Both the position numbers and the translations under genes were made by a program. Positions 2,341 to 45,015 of a DNA stretch of 64,000 nucleotides are shown here, in pieces. Origin of the DNA: Octopus vulgaris (taxonomy: Eukaryota); assembly GCA_951406725.2 (NCBI GenBank), contig OX597817.1, positions 114,204,001 through 114,268,000 on the forward strand. Direction: 5' to 3'. How positions within the stretch are numbered: position 1 is the stretch's first letter; each line of letters starts with the position of its first letter. The notes below the pieces were generated by a model. The model ran no database searches and was not told the DNA's origin. It saw nothing but the letters and a program-made list of their open reading frames with translations.

Positions 2341-2505
2341 GTATCTGTGTGTGTATTTGCTTGATTAAGAAGTTTGCTTTGTAACCTTGTAGTTTTGGGT
2401 TCAGTCACAGTGCACAGCGCTTTGGGCAATAGTCTTCTGCTGTAGCTCTGAGCTGACTAATATCGTGTGAGTGAATTTGATTGATGGAAACTGTGTAGAA
2501 GCCCA

Positions 2506-2540
<35 letters not shown>

Positions 2541-2702
2541 GGCACAGGTGTGGCTGTGTGGTAAGTAGCTTGCTTACCAACCACATGGTTCTGGGTTCAG
2601 TCCCACTGCATGACACCTTGGGCAAGTGTCTTCTACTATAGCCTCGGGCTGACCAAAGCTATGTGAGTGGATTTGGTAGACGGAAACTGAAAGAAGCCCG
2701 TT
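2541..2702 (+). mobile_element. tRNA-derived SINE family A, 5' half; the 3' half resumes at 5121-5330
   Basis: A-box-like TGGCTGTGTGG, B-box-like GGTTCAGTCCC and CORE-like CCTTGGGCAAGT; the same sequence recurs many times in the window. Confidence 0.8.
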
Positions 2703-2705
2703 GTA

Positions 2706-2754
<49 letters not shown>

Positions 2755-2759
<5 letters not shown>

Positions 2760-5120
2760 CAGTCCTCCTGTGCATACCTTCCTTCTTGTGACACTTATGA
2801 AGACCTGTTGAGGCAAGTGAAAATCAAATCAAAACAAATCAAAATAGATGAACATCAGTGGAATTGTATTCTTTGTGGTACCAGTGCCGGTGGCACACAA
2901 GAAAACCACCCAAACGTGGCCGTAGCCAGTACCGCATCGACTGGCCTCCGTGCTGTGGGCACAACAAACACCATCCGATCGTGGCCGTTCGCCAGCCTCA
3001 TCTGGCACCTGTGTCGGTGGCACATAAAGACACCATCCGAAGACCCGGCGACGTAGTCAGTCCACCTGTGCATACCTTCCCTCTTATGACACTTGTGAAG
3101 ACCTGTTGAGGCAAGTGTGTGACACTTGTGAAGACCTGTTGAGGCAGAGGCAAGTGTGTGACACTTGCGGAGACCTGTTGAGGCAAGTGTGTGACCCTTG
3201 TGAAGACCTGTTGAGGCAAGTGAAAATCAAATCAAATCAAACCAAATCAAAATAGATGAACATCAATGGAATTTGTATCTTTGTGGTTCCAGTACCGGTG
3301 GCACACAAGAAAACCATCCGAACGTGGCCGTAGCCAGTACCGCATCGACTGGCCTCCGTGCTGTGGGCACAACAAACACCATCTGATCGTGGCCGTTCGC
3401 CAGCCTCATCTGGCACCTGTGTCGGTGGCACATAAAAACACCATCCGAAGACCCGGCGACGTAGTCAGTCCACCTGTGCATACCTTCCCTCTTATGACAC
3501 TTGTGAAGACCTGTTGAGGCAAGTGTGTGACACTTGTGAAGACCTGTTGAGGCAGAGGCAAGTGTGTGACACGTGTGACACTTGTGAAGACCTGTTGAGG
3601 CAAGTGAAAATCAAAAAAAAAAAATCAAACCAAATCAAAATAGATGAACATCAATGGAATTTGTATCTTTGTGGTTCCAGTCACCGGTGGCACACAAGAA
3701 AACCATCCGATCGTGGCCGTTCGCCAGCCTCATCTGGCACCTGTGTCGGTGGCACATAAAAACACCATCCGAAGACCCGGCGACGTAGTCAGTCCACCTG
3801 TGCATACCTTCCTACTTATGACACTTGTGAAGACCTGTTGAGGCAAGTGTGTGACACTTGTGTAGACCTGTTGAGGCAAGTGAAAATCAAAAAATCAAAA
3901 TCAAAATCAAAATCAAAATCAAATCAAATCAAACCAAATCAAAATAGATGAACATCAATGGAATTTGTATCTTTGTGGTACCAGTACCGGTGGCACACAA
4001 GAAAACCATCCGAAAGTGGCCGTAGCCAGTACCGCATCGACTGGCCTCTGTGATGTGGGCACATAACAAACACCATCCGATCGTGGCCGTCCGCCAGCCT
4101 CATCTGGCACCTGTGTCGGTGGCACATAAAAACACCAACCGAAGACCAGGCAAGACTAGTCAGGCCATAACCCGTGGCCCCTACTTGGGACGTAGTCAGT
4201 CCACCTGTGCATACCTTCCTTCCTTCTTGTGACACTTGTGAAGACCTGTGAAGACCTGTTGAGGCAAGTGAAAATCAAATCAAATCAAATCAAAATAGAT
4301 GAACATCAATGGAATTTGTATCTTTGTGGTACCAGTGCCGGTGGCACACAAGAAAACCATCCGAACGTGGCCGTAGCCAGTACCGCATCGACTGGCCTCC
4401 GTGCTGTGGGCACGCAACAAACACCATCCGATCGTGGCCGTTCGCCAGCCCCATCTGGCACCTGTGTCGGTGGCACATAAAAACACCATCCGAAGACCCG
4501 GCAAGACTAGTCAGGCCATAACCCGTGGCCCCTACCTGGGACGTAGTCAGTCCACCTGTGCATACCTTCCTTCTTGTGACACTTGTGAAGACCTGTTGAG
4601 GCAAGTGAAAATCAAAAATCAAAAATCAAATCAAATCAAAATAGATGAACATCAATGGAATTTGTATCTTTGTGGTACCAGTGCCGGTGGCACACAAGAA
4701 AATCATCCGAACATGGCCGTAGCCATTACCGCATAGACTGGCCTCCGTAACAAACACCATCCGATTGTGGCCGTCCGCCAGCCTCATCTGGCACCTGTGT
4801 CGGTGGCACATTAAAAACACCATCCGAGCGTGGCCGTCTGCCAGCCTCGTCTGGCACCTGTGTCGGTGGCACATAAAAACACCATCCGAGCGTGGCCGTT
4901 CGCCAGCCTCGTCTGGCACCTGTGTCGGCGGCACATAAAATCACCCACTACACTCTCGGAGTGGTTGGCGTTAGGAAGGGCATCCAGCTGTAGAAACACT
5001 GCCAGATCTGACTGGCCTGGTGCAGCCTTCGGGCTCCCCAGACCCCAGTTGAACTGTCCAACCCATGCTAGCATGGAAAACGGACGCTAAATGATGATGA
5101 TGATGATGATGATGATGATG
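2755..5120 (+). repeat. Tandem array 1: six ~300-400-bp units ending in a SINE-like 3' tail with (GAT)n
   Basis: The unit marker ATAGATGAACATCA recurs at ~2844, 3251, 3639, 3943, 4294 and 4641. Units are separated by (AAATC)n. The terminal segment ...GGAAGGGCATCCAGCTGTAGAAAC...CCCATGCTAGCATGGAAAACGGACGCTAAAT(GAT)n is shared with monomeric SINE copies at 14160-14475 and 40141-40473. Confidence 0.9.
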
Positions 5121-23262: not shown

Positions 23263-24423
23263 GGGATGGTGGATCTCAAACCCAATAAAGCTATAGATGT
23301 AAATATTGGGTTAAGAAATGCTTTGGATAGAAAAATTTGAACGGTGCCTGTCATGTTTACTACTGATGTGTGTTCAAGTCCCACAGGTGGCCTTCTACTT
23401 TTTTTTTTTTCTATCCAAAGATCCTTTTAATTCAATATTTACATGCTATTATTTATGGCAATATTTAAGGCAGCAAGCTGATAGAATCGTTAGCATGTCG
23501 GGCAAAATGCTTTGAATTTTCATCTGAGTTCATCCATCTCTACATTCTCAATTCTAATTCCATCGAGGTTGACTTTGCCTTTCATCATTCGATGGGGGGT
23601 GGGGGATCACTAAAATAATTACCAGTTAAATACAGGGGTTGATATAGTTGATTTACCCCCTCCCCTGAAATTGTTCTCTTTGTGCTAAAATTTGAAACCA
23701 TTATTTACAACATTATTTACTTTGAGATCTGTTGTTCTAAAACAAAAATTATTTCACATTCTCTCAAATTGGCTGTTTGGTTAAGAAGCTTGCTTCCCAA
23801 CTAAGTAGTCTTTGGTTCAGTCCCACTGTGTGAAACCTTGGACAAGTGTCTTTGACATTGGCCCCTGGCCACCAAAGAATTACAAGTGAATTTGGTTGAT
23901 GGAAAGCGAAAGATGCCTGGTTTTTCTTTATATATACGTAGGTATTTATATATATATATGTGTGTGCTTGTGTACTTGTGTGTACCCTTGTCTAGACATC
24001 ATGTAATGGTTATAAATAAACATCATCATCATCATCATCATCATACAAAGTTGTACATTTCTAGTCTTTTGCAAAAAAGCATGTCTAGCTATGGAGAAAT
24101 ATGACTTTACATGGAAACAGGTGAGTGTTGGCAACAGGAAGGGCATCCAGCTATAGGAAATCTGACCTCTGCAAGCATGGAAATGTGGGTTTTAAAATGA
24201 TGTTGATGATGGTATATATATATATATATATGCACATACACATACATACACACATCATACATACATACATACATACATACATACATACATTCATATATAT
24301 ATATATATATATATATATAATTCAGGGTGAATACTTGATAATTGTAAGCACCTATATATGCCAGTTAGTGGTGTAGGTGATAGGGTATATTTATCAAAAG
24401 AAAAACAGGATGCAAAGGATTTA

Positions 24424-24510
24424 GCGGTACATATGTTTCTGGCTTTATTGGACAATTTATATCAATGCATAATTGATGTAACATGTATGTCAATAGCCTT
24501 CTTCAGCTGC
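24424..24510 (-). ncRNA. Antisense copy of the same hammerhead motif (one stem I mismatch)
   Basis: The reverse complement reads GCAG-CTGAAGA-AGGCT...AGCCA-GAAAC-ATAT-GTA-CCGC. Confidence 0.7.
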
Positions 24511-24568
24511 GCACAATTACCACACCAAAGACATAATGTAATACATGTCTTTGGTGTGGTAATTGTGC

Positions 24569-24655
24569 GCGGCTGAAGAAGGCTATTGACATACATGTTA
24601 CATCAATTCTGCATTGATATAAACTGTCCAATAAAGCCAGAAACATATGTACCGC
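24569..24655 (+). ncRNA. Type I hammerhead ribozyme motif
   Basis: GCGG-CTGAAGA-A-GGCT-ATTG...CAAT-AA-AGCC-A-GAAAC-ATAT-GTA-CCGC: stem I GCGG/CCGC, palindromic stem III ACATATGT, predicted cleavage after 24651. Confidence 0.8.
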
Positions 24656-24688
24656 TAAATCCTTTGCATCCTGTTTTTCTTTTGATAA

Positions 24689-24724
<36 letters not shown>

Positions 24725-42071: not shown

Positions 42072-42627
42072 TACAAGGTGCATCCCAGAAGTTTTGAAGC
42101 TTTTTCAGGAGAGCCATTTAAATTTCAAAGGAGCCTAAAACTCTATCTCCTTCAAAGTAGGATCCTCTGACTTCAATACACTTGTCGTAGCACTCAAACC
42201 ACTTTATGAAGGCCCTCAGAGAAGTCCTCCAAAGTGAAAGCGCCCAGAATCATTGTCACATGCTCCAGCTTTTAAGTATCTTTAAAACTACTGTTCCTTA
42301 GTTTCTCCTTCAGCTTAGAGAATGACCAAAAGTCATAGGGAGCAAGGTATGGAATAGTGAGAAGGGTGAGGGACAGTTTTGATGCCCATCTCTGGTAACC
42401 ATCATTTGGTTACCAGAATGGAATTGTGACCAGTAGTGTTTTAGTTGAGTGAAAAGCAGCATTGAGTGGGCAGTATTCAAAGTGCTGTTGCTGTTGTCTC
42501 CTTCAACGTGGAATAAAAAAGGTGGCAGGTGAGTTTATTAAATGTATAGTAATGATATACTAAAATTGGAATAATCTCAGACAGTTATAACTATCTCTCC
42601 TAAAGAGTCACAAAACTTATAGAATGC

Positions 42628-42635
<8 letters not shown>
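42072..42635 (-). mobile_element. Degenerate mariner remnant
   Basis: TA-CAAGGTGCATCC...GAATGCACCTTA-TA termini; internal decayed transposase-like sequence. Confidence 0.55.
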
Positions 42636-42658
<23 letters not shown>

Positions 42659-42869
42659 TATGTGAAATAGAAAGATGAATAATCTTGTAGTAGATTAATC
42701 AAAAGTTTAACCGATACCTTAGTAGCAAAAATCACAGCAGTAAAACAGCACGGTTGGAGGTACAACCATATGGTGTTGCAACCGTGCGTTGGTGCGGATA
42801 ATTGAAATTAGAACATTATTGGTGAATTGAAGAAATGGAGCTGAACGCAGATTGAACAGAAATCGTTTT

Positions 42870-42960
42870 ATTTCATTCTACACGTGTTTCGAAAGGCACA
42901 AATTACCAAAATCCGATGGAATAATGGGACCATATTGTGTCTTTCTCTTCAGGAAGAAAA
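42870..42960 (-). ncRNA. Identical hammerhead motif in the inverted pLTR
   Basis: Reverse complement of 44286-44376. Confidence 0.85.
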
Positions 42961-43511
42961 TCCAGGAAATCCGTTGGAAAAACAAAAACAGAACAGAGGC
43001 GGAGCAAAAACAAATCGAACTATGCTCCTAAGAGCCCATGGCGAAACTGTTTATCAGTGTATGTTGAGAACCGGTGGCTGAAGAATTCAACGGGTCAGGC
43101 ATCGGTCAATCATGTGGGTGAGGGGGCGTAGATGTTCTTTGTGACCGAGAATAAAGTTCTGACTATTTAAGGAATATTGGATGTTTTATAAGGGGCGAGA
43201 AAAAATCTACTTAGAGACGTGTGTGTGTGTATACTGTTCTATATACGTGTGTGTTGGCGTAGGGGTAAGAAAACATTTTTGTGTACGTGTGTGTTTGATC
43301 GTTCGGCTGTCAGTGGCTACTGCCGTGATGACCGTTGGGTGGCAGAAAAAAAAAAAAAATATATATCATGTTTTATGTGTGTGTGTGTTCTCATCTAAGC
43401 CTGCCTTGTCAAAGGAAACCCCCCGCTGTGAAAAAACCAAGCCAGCACGTTTGTCTTACAGGAGTAATTCCTATAGTTAATAGTGACAGTGGTTAATCGT
43501 AGATATCTTAA

Positions 43512-43766
43512 AACGCAGTTCTATTTCAGACCACGGGACTCAGTAAGCTAATATGGCGACTGAAGGATACGAACTTAAGCTACAGGCTGGAATGGTCAAT
43601 TTTGTCGGTGGCCCTCCCATTTGATAGGGGCAGAAGGCAGTGCAACCTTTGTGTCTCCGAACTCTTCCATATTTTATTTGCCAGAGGCCGGATGGTAAAC
43701 GGGCTTTTACAGTCGGCTTTTCGATGCCCCCATTGGCGGCGTTACACTTATCTGGCTTTTAAATAG
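43512..43766 (+). pseudogene. C-terminus of a PLE GIY-YIG endonuclease (Nematis/Neptune-like); open frame without start
   Basis: Manual translation ...TTGLSKLIWRLKDTNLSYRLEWSILSVALPFDRGRRQCNLCVSELFHILFARGRMVNGLLQSAFRCPHWRRYTYLAFK* fits the pattern 'T.LSK.IW.LK...W.IL...C.LC..E...N...C.H'. Not in the supplied ORF track. Confidence 0.8.
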
Positions 43767-44285
43767 CGTTTATAAATAATACCGGCACCCATAGCCCTTG
43801 GCAACAAATTCTGAAATAGCCTTTAAGATATCTACGATTAACCACTGCAAGGGGAATTACTCCTGTAAGACAAACGGGGCTTGGTTTTTTCACAGCGGGG
43901 GGTTTCCTTGACAAGGCAGGCTTAGATGAGAACACACACAGCCGAACGATCAAACGCACACACGTACACAAAAATGTTTTCTACCTCTACGCCAACACAC
44001 ACGTATATAGAACAGTATACACACACACACGTCTCTAAGTAGATTTTTTCTCGCCCCTTATAAAACATCCAATATTCCTTAAATAGTCAGAACTTTATTC
44101 TCGGTCACAAAGAACATCTACGCCCCCTCACCCACATGATTGACCGATGCCTGACCCGTTGAATTCTTCAGCCACCGGTTCTCAACATACACTGATAAAC
44201 AGTTTCGCCATGGGCTCTTAGGAGCATAGTTCGATTTGTTTTTGCTCCGCCTCTGTTCTGTTTTTGTTTTTCCAACGGATTTCTA

Positions 44286-44376
44286 TTTTCTTCCTGAAGA
44301 GAAAGACACAATATGGTCCCATTATTCCATCGGATTTTGGTAATTTGTGCCTTTCGAAACACGTGTAGAATGAAAT
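44286..44376 (+). ncRNA. Type I hammerhead ribozyme motif in the 3' pLTR
   Basis: TTC-CTGAAGA-GAAAGACACAA...TTGTGCCTTTC-GAAAC-ACGT-GTA-GAA: 11-bp stem II base (1 mismatch), palindromic stem III ACACGTGT, predicted cleavage after 44367. Confidence 0.85.
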
Positions 44377-44432
44377 AAAACGATTTCTGTTCAATCTGCG
44401 TTCAGCTCCATTTCTTCAATTCACCAATAATG

Positions 44433-44517
<85 letters not shown>

Positions 44518-44520
44518 TAC

Positions 44521-44571
<51 letters not shown>

Positions 44572-44577
44572 CATATT

Positions 44578-44609
<32 letters not shown>

Positions 44610-45015
44610 TATATGACGCAAATGAAAGACGTAGGCCAGATTTTTACACAAGAATTTCTTATTAATCATGACAATTGTTTTGATACATCTAGCAACGATC
44701 CCTCGTTTGTATGTTTATATCTATACGTTGTATATATGTCTTTGTGTTCATCCCCCATCACTGCTTGATAACTGGTGTTAGTTTCTTTATGTTTCCTTAA
44801 CTTAGTGATTCAACAAAATGGGACCAATAGAATAAGTACCAGGCTAAAAAAACAAAAACAAGGACTGTTTTGTGTGTGTGAGTTGATTTGTTTTACTTAA
44901 TCCTTCAGGTGGTACCCCCTGCATAGATGTAATCTAATGAATGAAACAAGTTAAAGATAAGCAATAAAAGACATGTATGTTAACACTGTGTGTGTGTTAT
45001 TGTGTGTGTGTGTCG

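Follow-up and report, generated by a model that had tools for sequence, protein, structure and literature searches.

Two truncated head-to-head copies of a Penelope-like element form a young fold-back in Octopus vulgaris, probably through a single integration event

Introduction

How does a transposable element come to lie in a genome as two inverted arms, each with its own hammerhead ribozyme motif? This question is raised by an insertion at positions 42660-44434 of a 64,000-nt stretch of Octopus vulgaris DNA (contig OX597817.1, positions 114,204,001 to 114,268,000 of the forward strand), which is called the window below. An earlier note, made from the sequence alone, had described the insertion as a fold-back Penelope-like element (PLE) in which opposed hammerhead motifs flank the C-terminal part of a GIY-YIG endonuclease. 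This description was borne out by full-length sister copies, by an I-TevI-like fold of the nuclease and by the published layout of PLEs and of their Hydra clade (PMC8557442). Coordinates refer to the window, and "unit" refers to positions in the 3,624-bp tandem repeat unit of the PLE family. With a probability of roughly 0.8, we consider the fold-back to be a head-to-head pair of two 5′-truncated copies of a Hydra-type PLE within a (TA)n microsatellite, a pair that probably arose in a single event through two-strand priming at two fixed sites about 152 nt apart on the element RNA.

Architecture of the insertion

The two inverted arms within 42660-44434 measured ~704 and ~616 nt, close to the ~700 and ~610 bp recorded earlier. 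A repeat search of the window paired 42966-43279 with 43970-44283 (314 nt, 98% identity) and 42809-42961 with 44285-44437 (153 nt, 99%). Self-BLAST aligned the outer parts of the arms, 42809-43310 and 44437-43938, at 98.4% over 504 columns with 6 gaps, whereas the inner parts, 43380-43512 and 43940-43822, matched more weakly (88% over 133 columns, 14 gaps). Only the left arm had the 69 nt at 43311-43379, an A/TA-rich 3′ untranslated region (UTR) segment on the minus strand. Since this segment was kept in all sister copies, the indel of ~70 bp that had been reported is real but represents a private deletion in the right arm, which the sister-copy alignments placed at 43938-43940 on the plus strand (~64-69 nt). 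In addition, self-BLAST found no partner on the right side for the 149 nt at 42660-42808, and the one-sided extension of ~150 bp was thereby confirmed.

The left arm aligned on the minus strand to unit 2820-3624, and the right arm aligned on the plus strand to unit 2494-2906 and 2971-3469. Therefore, both arms are 5′-truncated copies of the 3′ end of the element, and the one-sided extension corresponds to the final ~152 nt of the unit. The left copy (minus) retains unit ~2790-3624. It adjoins a (TA)14 target microsatellite (42632-42659), begins with the tail (unit 3473-3624) at 42660-42808, which self-BLAST left unpaired and which aligns to the unit together with the rest of the left arm, and continues with a 5′-truncated part of the 3′ UTR (unit ~2830-3472) at 42809-43458 that shows 96-97% identity to sister copies. 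The right copy (plus) retains unit 2494-3469. It comprises the last 79 codons and the stop codon of the open reading frame (ORF) at 43527-43766 and, as seen in sister-copy alignments, a tail-less 3′ UTR (unit 2734-3469) at 43767-44434. A (TA)n/(TACA)n microsatellite, visible in the sequence and in the repeat search, follows at 44435-44612. The 152-nt tail at the unit end is thus present on the left copy only. The arrangement had been interpreted as an inverted 5′ pseudo-long terminal repeat (pseudo-LTR) with an extension; the layout is indeed typical of PLEs, but both arms are truncated, and the insertion holds neither a full-length copy nor a pseudo-LTR in the strict sense.

The two copies meet in a 68-nt mosaic at 43459-43526, the composition of which was determined by BLAST of 43380-43600 against the natural unit. 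Positions 43459-43487 correspond to the ORF in sense orientation (unit 2213-2241), 43488-43512 to the 3′ UTR in antisense orientation (unit ~2814-2789), and 43512-43530 again to the ORF in sense orientation (unit 2299-2318); the ORF then continues from unit 2494 starting at 43527. This mosaic looks like the outcome of several template switches at short homologies. A family contig from an RNA or DNA run matched 43459-43487 as ORF sequence. As a separate observation, the 3′ UTR (unit ~2814-2830) holds a short antisense look-alike of the ORF segment at unit 2213-2241 (the GVIPIVNSD region), and within 43459-43487 the mosaic switches between the ORF segment and this look-alike at that homology.

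The insertion is very young. Its CpG observed/expected ratio was 0.91, compared with 0.34 in the remaining window, and the highest value among 115 other windows of 1,775 nt was 0.785. Of the 1,761 positions covered by at least 10 sister copies, only 19 were private, and these comprised 2 substitutions and 17 positions of indels or junction mosaic. The youth that had been suspected from the retained CpG dinucleotides was thus upheld. The insertion is dead, because it contains no reverse transcriptase (RT) and only half a nuclease domain.

The source family

When the right half of the element was used as a query, at least 1,594 first-look candidates were obtained in the same 2.8-Gb genome, and 99 matches at 98-100% identity came from the 40 candidates that were scored. 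Tandem arrays spaced 3,622-3,625 bp, with a natural tandem unit of 3,624 bp, were then revealed by a query with the 5′ part of a longer copy. An array on contig 1 contains three full units and a truncated fourth, and an array on contig 24 contains two units followed by an inverted stub. The unit consists of a ~48-nt 5′ UTR, a single ORF of 895 codons and a ~890-nt 3′ UTR, with a hammerhead motif 220 nt before the unit end. In tandem units the open frames extend over 899 and 867 codons from stop to stop, and the frame of 899 codons measures 895 from the first ATG. These units are full-length copies of the kind that the earlier note had proposed to retrieve. In the arrays, the tail continues directly into the 5′ UTR of the next unit. 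Among public contigs, the family was present at very high depth in DNA runs, and contigs were also found in runs guessed to be RNA.

Some further features of the unit were noted at one locus (L018). The tail contains 13 nt, GGTATCGGTTAAA, that are complementary to TTTAACCGATACC in the 5′ UTR, and pairing between the tail and 5′ UTR ends is predicted for a tandem transcript. The motif CCAATAATG occurs at the internal start site described below and also at the start codon.

A sister family was also encountered, with at least 3,204 first-look candidates and 71% identity to the 3′ end of the main family (locus L021:1896-2187 and loci L042-L070). Many of its copies are ~390 bp long and share a common 5′ end, and no ORF was seen in them. 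Its hammerhead layout and both of its end positions are as in the main family. Possibly, this family moves non-autonomously by means of the PLE machinery.

Survey of sister loci

In order to compare the fold-back with other insertions, 35 loci of the family were surveyed; the 5′ junction was in view at 33 of them and lay outside the fetched stretch at 2. Inverted pairs were found at 27 of the 33 loci, and the 18 paired loci of the first hit table were without exception oriented head to head (minus/plus). At the remaining 6 of the 33 loci, the element was a solo 5′-truncated copy, with either kind of end. The outer ends of the pairs were fixed. Where both outer ends were visible, one end lay at unit 3621-3624 and the other at unit 3458-3476 in 24 of 24 pairs, so that each pair carried exactly one tail; this count omits three pairs, since in two the fetched stretch ended within the partner and in one the partner ended at unit 3170. 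In the sister family, 14 of 14 partners were tail-less at the homologous internal site, the selected copies carrying the tail owing to the choice of query.

The inner ends were variable. The tail-bearing copy was the shorter one in 14 of 23 pairs, and at two loci it was merely 36 and 75 nt long. At the junctions, overlaps of 0-15 nt were observed in 19 of 26 cases and fillers of 2-21 nt in the other 7, and (TA)n was present in none. The two truncation points were no more than 30 nt apart in 4 of 23 pairs, compared with 0.78 expected from shuffled pairings (P = 0.005), although the sample is small and the cut-off was picked after viewing the data. These near-equal truncations hint that reverse transcription ran to the same RNA 5′ end in some pairs. 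The largest fold-back seen was a near-perfect palindrome of 5,951 nt (locus L013:1476-7418, 99.4%), in which the truncation points of the two copies lie within the ORF, at unit 504 and 516.

Both start sites, 152 nt apart, are preceded by a TTCAC(CA)ATAAT-like motif. Judging from its sequence, this motif could pair with a TA primer.

Origin of the fold-back

The fixed outer ends, the head-to-head orientation and the microhomologous junctions are consistent with the following course of events. The nuclease would cut both strands of the TA repeat. One DNA 3′ end would prime complementary DNA (cDNA) synthesis at the RNA end, unit 3624, and the other would prime at the internal site, unit 3469-3472. 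Both cDNAs would stop early, and their ends would be joined via template switching at microhomologies.

Similar steps have been reported for a PLE of Anolis carolinensis, Poseidon, for which both DNA strands were cut and extended in vitro (Frangieh et al. 2024, PMC11167929). In that system, reverse transcription started from two internal RNA sites whose spacing equalled the genomic tail, and no start-site difference between the strands was observed (PMC11167929). The octopus family resembles anole Poseidon in the extension of both strands, in the two internal start sites spaced by the tail and in the AT-rich target (PMC11167929). It differs in three respects: the octopus sites are 152 nt apart rather than 30-40 nt; the anole site has no homology to the target, whereas the octopus sites follow the TTCAC(CA)ATAAT-like motif; and the octopus sites are used strictly one each per insertion.

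According to Craig et al. (2021, PMC8557442), the usual insertions of endonuclease-bearing (EN+) PLEs show 5′ truncation, partial tandems, an inverted 5′-truncated copy and a tail of 30-40 bp at one end. Against this standard, the octopus insertion has the head-to-head inverted truncated copy and the one-end tail, and tandem arrays occur elsewhere in the genome. On the other hand, its tail is ~152 nt (149 nt in the window) rather than 30-40 bp, and both window copies are truncated stubs, with neither a full-length copy nor a direct pseudo-LTR.

A further parallel is offered by twin priming of human LINE-1, in which a second priming on the other strand gives an inverted segment joined at a microhomology, as in the octopus fold-back. 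LINE-1 twin priming inverts part of one copy, whereas the octopus arms overlap in content, which means that the same RNA region was copied twice.

Three observations weigh against a single two-strand event. Solo 5′-truncated copies exist at the 6 loci mentioned above. The strict pairing of one tail-bearing and one tail-less copy is not predicted by the anole data. Finally, among the contigs of four of the 24 public runs listed, none extended across the private junction at 43420-43527, and the bins at 43420-43487 had no DNA depth.

The same data bear on other origins. In a snap-back, a single cDNA would fold onto itself and serve as its own template, which would make the second arm a DNA duplicate of the first; such a course would account for the 4 of 23 pairs whose 5′ truncations lie no more than 30 nt apart (0.78 expected, P = 0.005) and for the 5,951-nt near-perfect palindrome. 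It would, however, give a shared inner boundary and a second arm reaching the end of the first, tail included, whereas the outer ends were fixed and unlike (3624 vs ~3470) in 24 of 24 pairs and the inner ends were more than 30 nt apart in 19 of 23. Furthermore, in the 14 of 23 pairs with a shorter tail-bearing copy, the longer tail-less copy could not be derived from its shorter partner, and the tail could not be derived from the tail-less copy. Neither arm is a copy of the other in these cases, and snap-back is therefore excluded for most pairs; as a general origin we regard it as unlikely. Two independent insertions of the same family that happen to abut in one (TA)n microsatellite are conceivable in an abundant, (TA)n-targeting family, and PLE clusters within single microsatellites do exist (L021 and L033 hold copies of two families). 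Independent events should yield all orientations and tail combinations, yet the pairs were head to head in 18 of 18 cases, carried one tail in 24 of 24, and had (TA)n between the copies at 0 of 26 junctions, which makes this origin quite improbable.

An inversion created by a chimeric palindromic long read or a mis-join would also mimic a fold-back, since palindromes in TA-rich repeats are hard to assemble, and the junction was bridged by no independent contig from the four public runs. Nevertheless, the arms are set apart by the 69-nt indel, by small indels and by the tail of 149 nt on one side, and they meet in a mosaic rather than in a clean mirror. The same architecture was found at 26 other loci spread over many contigs, with a separate junction at each, and the layout is the published one for PLEs. 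An assembly artefact is accordingly very improbable. The possibility that this is instead a hairpin RNA locus used by the host, serving as a source of small RNAs or as an ADAR sponge and kept for that function, draws on the perfect helices of 303 and 150 bp predicted in a read-through transcript. With 2 private substitutions in ~1.7 kb, the insertion is of very recent origin, and it is one of thousands, so function is not needed as an explanation; moreover, the unique flank was covered by no possible-RNA contig, and the A-to-G differences are present in DNA runs too. Host use thus appears highly improbable.

Two-strand priming at two fixed sites therefore remains our preferred reading of the fold-back. 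As a tentative extension, more probably wrong than right, PLE integration might couple its two RT start sites, with one cDNA started from the RNA end and one 152 nt upstream on the opposite strand, as the one-tail pairs (24 of 24, and 14 of 14 in the sister family) and the excess of near-equal truncations would suggest. A single ribonucleoprotein would then copy the template from both cut strands; it might be a protein dimer seated on one RNA or on two RNAs joined through the hammerhead's palindromic helix III. If this were true, the dimer architecture of the hammerhead would serve integration rather than cleavage.

Hammerhead motifs

The motif CTGAAGA...GAAACACGTGTA was found at 44294-44367 (plus) and 42879-42952 (minus). 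The hammerhead motif of the right copy as a whole occupies 44288-44373 (plus), as supported by alignment to RF00163, by folding and by the Hydra-clade layout; that of the left copy, located by pattern match, occupies 42873-42958 (minus). In the right copy, the core lies at 44294-44300, helix II at 44301-44355 (a 9-bp stem with a 37-nt insert), GAA at 44356-44358 and the palindromic helix III, ACACGUGU, at 44359-44366, and cleavage is predicted after 44367. In the left copy, the core CUGAAGA lies at 42946-42952 and GAAACACGUGUA at 42879-42890, and cleavage is predicted on the minus strand between 42879 and 42878. The left motif is identical to the right one from the core through helices II and III. 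The conserved type I core, CUGAAGA-G...C-GAA-A...U-A including the G10.1-C11.1 pair, is present in both arms. The pattern CTGANGA-N40-70-GAAACNNNNGTH had four matches in the window, compared with 0.04 expected from 100 shuffles; two of the four belong to a second fold-back at 24.4-24.7 kb.

Several results count against the hammerhead reading. Rfam at its gathering score gave no match in the whole window, and at E <= 10 over 42500-44600 it gave 19 matches, none of which was a hammerhead. RF00163 could be aligned end to end (model positions 1-45) but scored 14.8 bits against a gathering score of 34, with an E value of 0.54 in a search of 141 nt. The low score results from the 37-nt insert in helix II; the alignment to RF00163 penalises a helix II insert of 51 nt. 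The local fold of the region was no more stable than those of shuffled sequences (z = −0.82), and a monomer constrained to the hammerhead fold reached −21.1 kcal/mol, compared with −26.6 kcal/mol when unconstrained. The claim that each arm contains an intact hammerhead thus holds for the conserved core and not at the Rfam gathering score.

In the folding predictions, helix II and an interrupted helix I formed in the monomer, and helix III formed between two molecules only. A dimer was predicted at −61.1 kcal/mol, compared with −53.2 kcal/mol for two monomers. Over ~250 kb of sister loci, the pattern matched 35 distinct sequences from five families, and the inner four bases of helix III were self-complementary in all five hammerhead-bearing families. 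In the sister family (71% identity over 334 nt), CATATG replaces CACGTG, and helix III is still palindromic. In its distal helix II, CTGC/GCAG stands for (A)CAC/GTG(C); these two-sided changes keep 2-3 pairs, two proximal pairs are broken, and few independent lineages are represented.

Minimal hammerheads of metazoan PLEs have been described as dimer-dependent and of low in vitro activity by Cervera and de la Pena (2014, PMC4209133). Like those hammerheads, the octopus motif is of type I, with a canonical core, the G10.1-C11.1 pair and a helix II larger than usual, and its short palindromic helix III could be formed between two copies only. It departs from them in the 37-nt insert of helix II, which has its own predicted hairpin. 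Frangieh et al. (2024, PMC11167929) found that the anole PLE ribozyme requires protein and is not needed for insertion in vitro. From their sequences, both octopus motifs are best described as passengers in a dead insertion and as hammerheads of the dimer-dependent PLE type, for which cleavage is predicted. As the octopus family illustrates, long helix II inserts let PLE ribozymes escape Rfam.

Two hammerhead-bearing elements of other families, L035:3125-3325 (ACAATTGT) and L053:1179 (ACGATCGT), also have a long helix II and a palindromic helix III; the hammerheads at L035:3125-3325 likewise form an opposed pair.

The encoded protein

The frame at 43512-43766 is stop-free for 84 codons, followed by a stop codon. 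By tblastn, codons 43527-43763 (plus) were 100% identical to residues 817-895 of the 895-residue family ORF; 79 of the 84 codons are therefore homologous to the ORF C-terminus. The fragment represents the C-terminal half of the nuclease domain, in which CNLC..E, N and CPH are present and the GIY, YIG and Arg motifs are missing. The stop-free endonuclease C-terminus proposed for the spacer is accordingly open as described, but the spacer starts with the 68-nt mosaic and encodes only part of the domain.

The full ORF comprises an N-terminal DKT domain, an RT with YRDD and, at the C-terminus, a GIY-YIG nuclease, and contains the motifs QSDKTRNTY, FDIASFYPSI and YRDD. An RT followed by a GIY-YIG endonuclease within one ORF is the arrangement by which the PLE class is recognised, and the family has it. 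A database search with the ORF retrieved 68 relatives at E <= 1e-3, the best of which had an E value of 1.1e-104 at 35% identity; they include proteins of a bryozoan, a coral and Argonauta. In the alignment, the ORF and its relatives share RW(K), DKT, YRDD, GIY..YIG..R..H and CxxC-E..N..CxH. The relatives read SDKT or ADKT at the DKT position; at the N-terminal RW motif, the family ORF reads RIRWLIFF (RW followed by L) and the relatives LRWK or RWR. Residues Y70, Y83, G85, R94 and H98 were invariant in 43 sequences. A Ser/Asn/Gly-rich low-complexity stretch of ~150 residues, located at ~680-790 of the relatives' alignment columns, lies between the RT and the nuclease (locus L013:4396-6660), and most relatives do not have it.

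Profile searches argued against the nuclease assignment or were weak. Pfam found no family in the 84-residue peptide or in a 755-residue copy. PF01541 (GIY-YIG) was the most recurrent Pfam family among the relatives and was matched in only 5 of 43, with a best E value of 0.0033, and RVT_1 was similarly weak (2 of 43, best E value 4.1e-5). A profile of the 43 relatives gave a single chance-level match (E 1.5) against PDB sequences. An AlphaFold model of the last 187 residues, of which residues 109-187 are the 79 residues of the window, had a predicted local distance difference test score above 90 over residues 60-170. In a VIA-align structural search of 48,161 chains, its best match was I-TevI (Z 9.5, root-mean-square deviation 2.4, 89 of 92 residues), followed at ranks 2-4 by T4 EndoII (Z 8.3), PD-T4-3 (Z 6.1) and UvrC-N (Z 6.0); Hpy188I and Eco29kI took ranks 6-7. 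Ranks 1-4 are all GIY-YIG nucleases, and the modelled nuclease is thus assigned to the GIY-YIG fold. The expectation that the peptide belongs to a PLE GIY-YIG nuclease was therefore sustained by its 100% identity to the family ORF and by the fold match, and Pfam was silent on the peptide itself.

Relationship to the Hydra clade

The motifs and the target fit a placement of the family in the Hydra clade of PLEs. As described by Craig et al. (2021, PMC8557442), this clade consists of short elements that have a C-terminal GIY-YIG domain without CCHH, DKT in place of DKG, and an RWK motif. The same authors describe a CxCX5C linker, CxxC and CxH flanking E and N, canonical hammerheads and (TA)n targets, and tabulate ~30 Hydra-clade hammerheads with a stem III of ACNN/NNGT and a loop 2 of 3-10 nt (PMC8557442). 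Their supplement includes Hydra-1_Obim of Octopus bimaculoides, a 2,507-bp element in (TA)n (PMC8557442).

The octopus family shares DKT in place of DKG with the clade; at the RWK motif, its ORF has RW followed by L. Its nuclease lacks CCHH and reads CNLCVSE ... MVNG ... CPH (window 43527-43763 and sister ORFs), a sense-strand hammerhead in the layout of the ~30 tabulated motifs, with a stem III of ACNN/NNGT, lies near the 3′ end, and the element sits in (TA)n, as seen in the window flanks and in sister copies. The printed protein of Hydra-1_Obim was judged by eye to be collinear with the octopus ORF. Two differences count against the placement: the octopus unit is 3,624 bp long, compared with 2.1-2.7 kb for complete Hydra families (<3 kb), and the linker cysteines of CxCX5C have been lost (at most one of four is kept), although (TA)n targeting remains. 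In two alignments, either SGCRSRNEYSD.. or a Cys-free stretch faced CNCRNxxxCPxxxxC of the relatives. The octopus family also differs from the published accounts in its Ser/Asn-rich stretch of ~150 residues between the RT and the endonuclease and in its hammerhead loop 2 of 37 nt, compared with 3-10 nt. Judged by its motifs, the element belongs in a known clade as a new family, or as a fuller version, and its layout is likewise known.

Predicted RNA of the insertion

A transcript of 42660-44434 was predicted to fold at −1,262 kcal/mol with 608 pairs between the arms and with helices of 303 and 150 bp that run without a break, and all 86 nucleotides of the hammerhead were predicted to pair with the opposite arm. 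As a prediction, this agrees with the earlier proposal that a transcript would form double-stranded RNA that sequesters its own ribozyme. A read-through transcript is thus predicted to lock the hammerhead motifs into a long inter-arm duplex. Contigs of the possible RNA runs among the four public runs included none over the unique left flank, and the A-to-G differences that were listed also occur in DNA runs. Judging from the modelled fold, such long perfect hairpins would be plausible substrates for editing or small-RNA production in cephalopods.

Significance

The locus itself is of small import, being a dead stub of a known class in a published layout, from a clade already reported from Octopus. 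The family is mainly useful as raw material for the mechanism of PLE integration, on which we know of only one in vitro study so far. It is young and abundant and has clean junctions, and its hundreds of fold-backs form a readable record of PLE integration, in which the strict one-tail rule and the 152-nt tail constrain the mechanism. In addition, the zinc-finger-like linker of PLEs has been linked to targeting, and this family retains (TA)n targeting although its linker cysteines are lost.

Other features of the window

At 44453-44598, Rfam gave sub-threshold matches to mir-297, mir-1277 and others, which are low-complexity artefacts on the (TA)n/(TACA)n microsatellite. At 24321-24693, (TA)n also holds a second small fold-back, which is unrelated. 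It has arms of 149 nt at 24386-24534 and 24545-24693 (98%) with a 10-nt spacer, and a one-sided extension of 65 nt at 24321-24385. Its opposed hammerhead motifs, at 24428-24506 (minus) and 24573-24651 (plus), have a long helix II and the palindromic ACATATGT.

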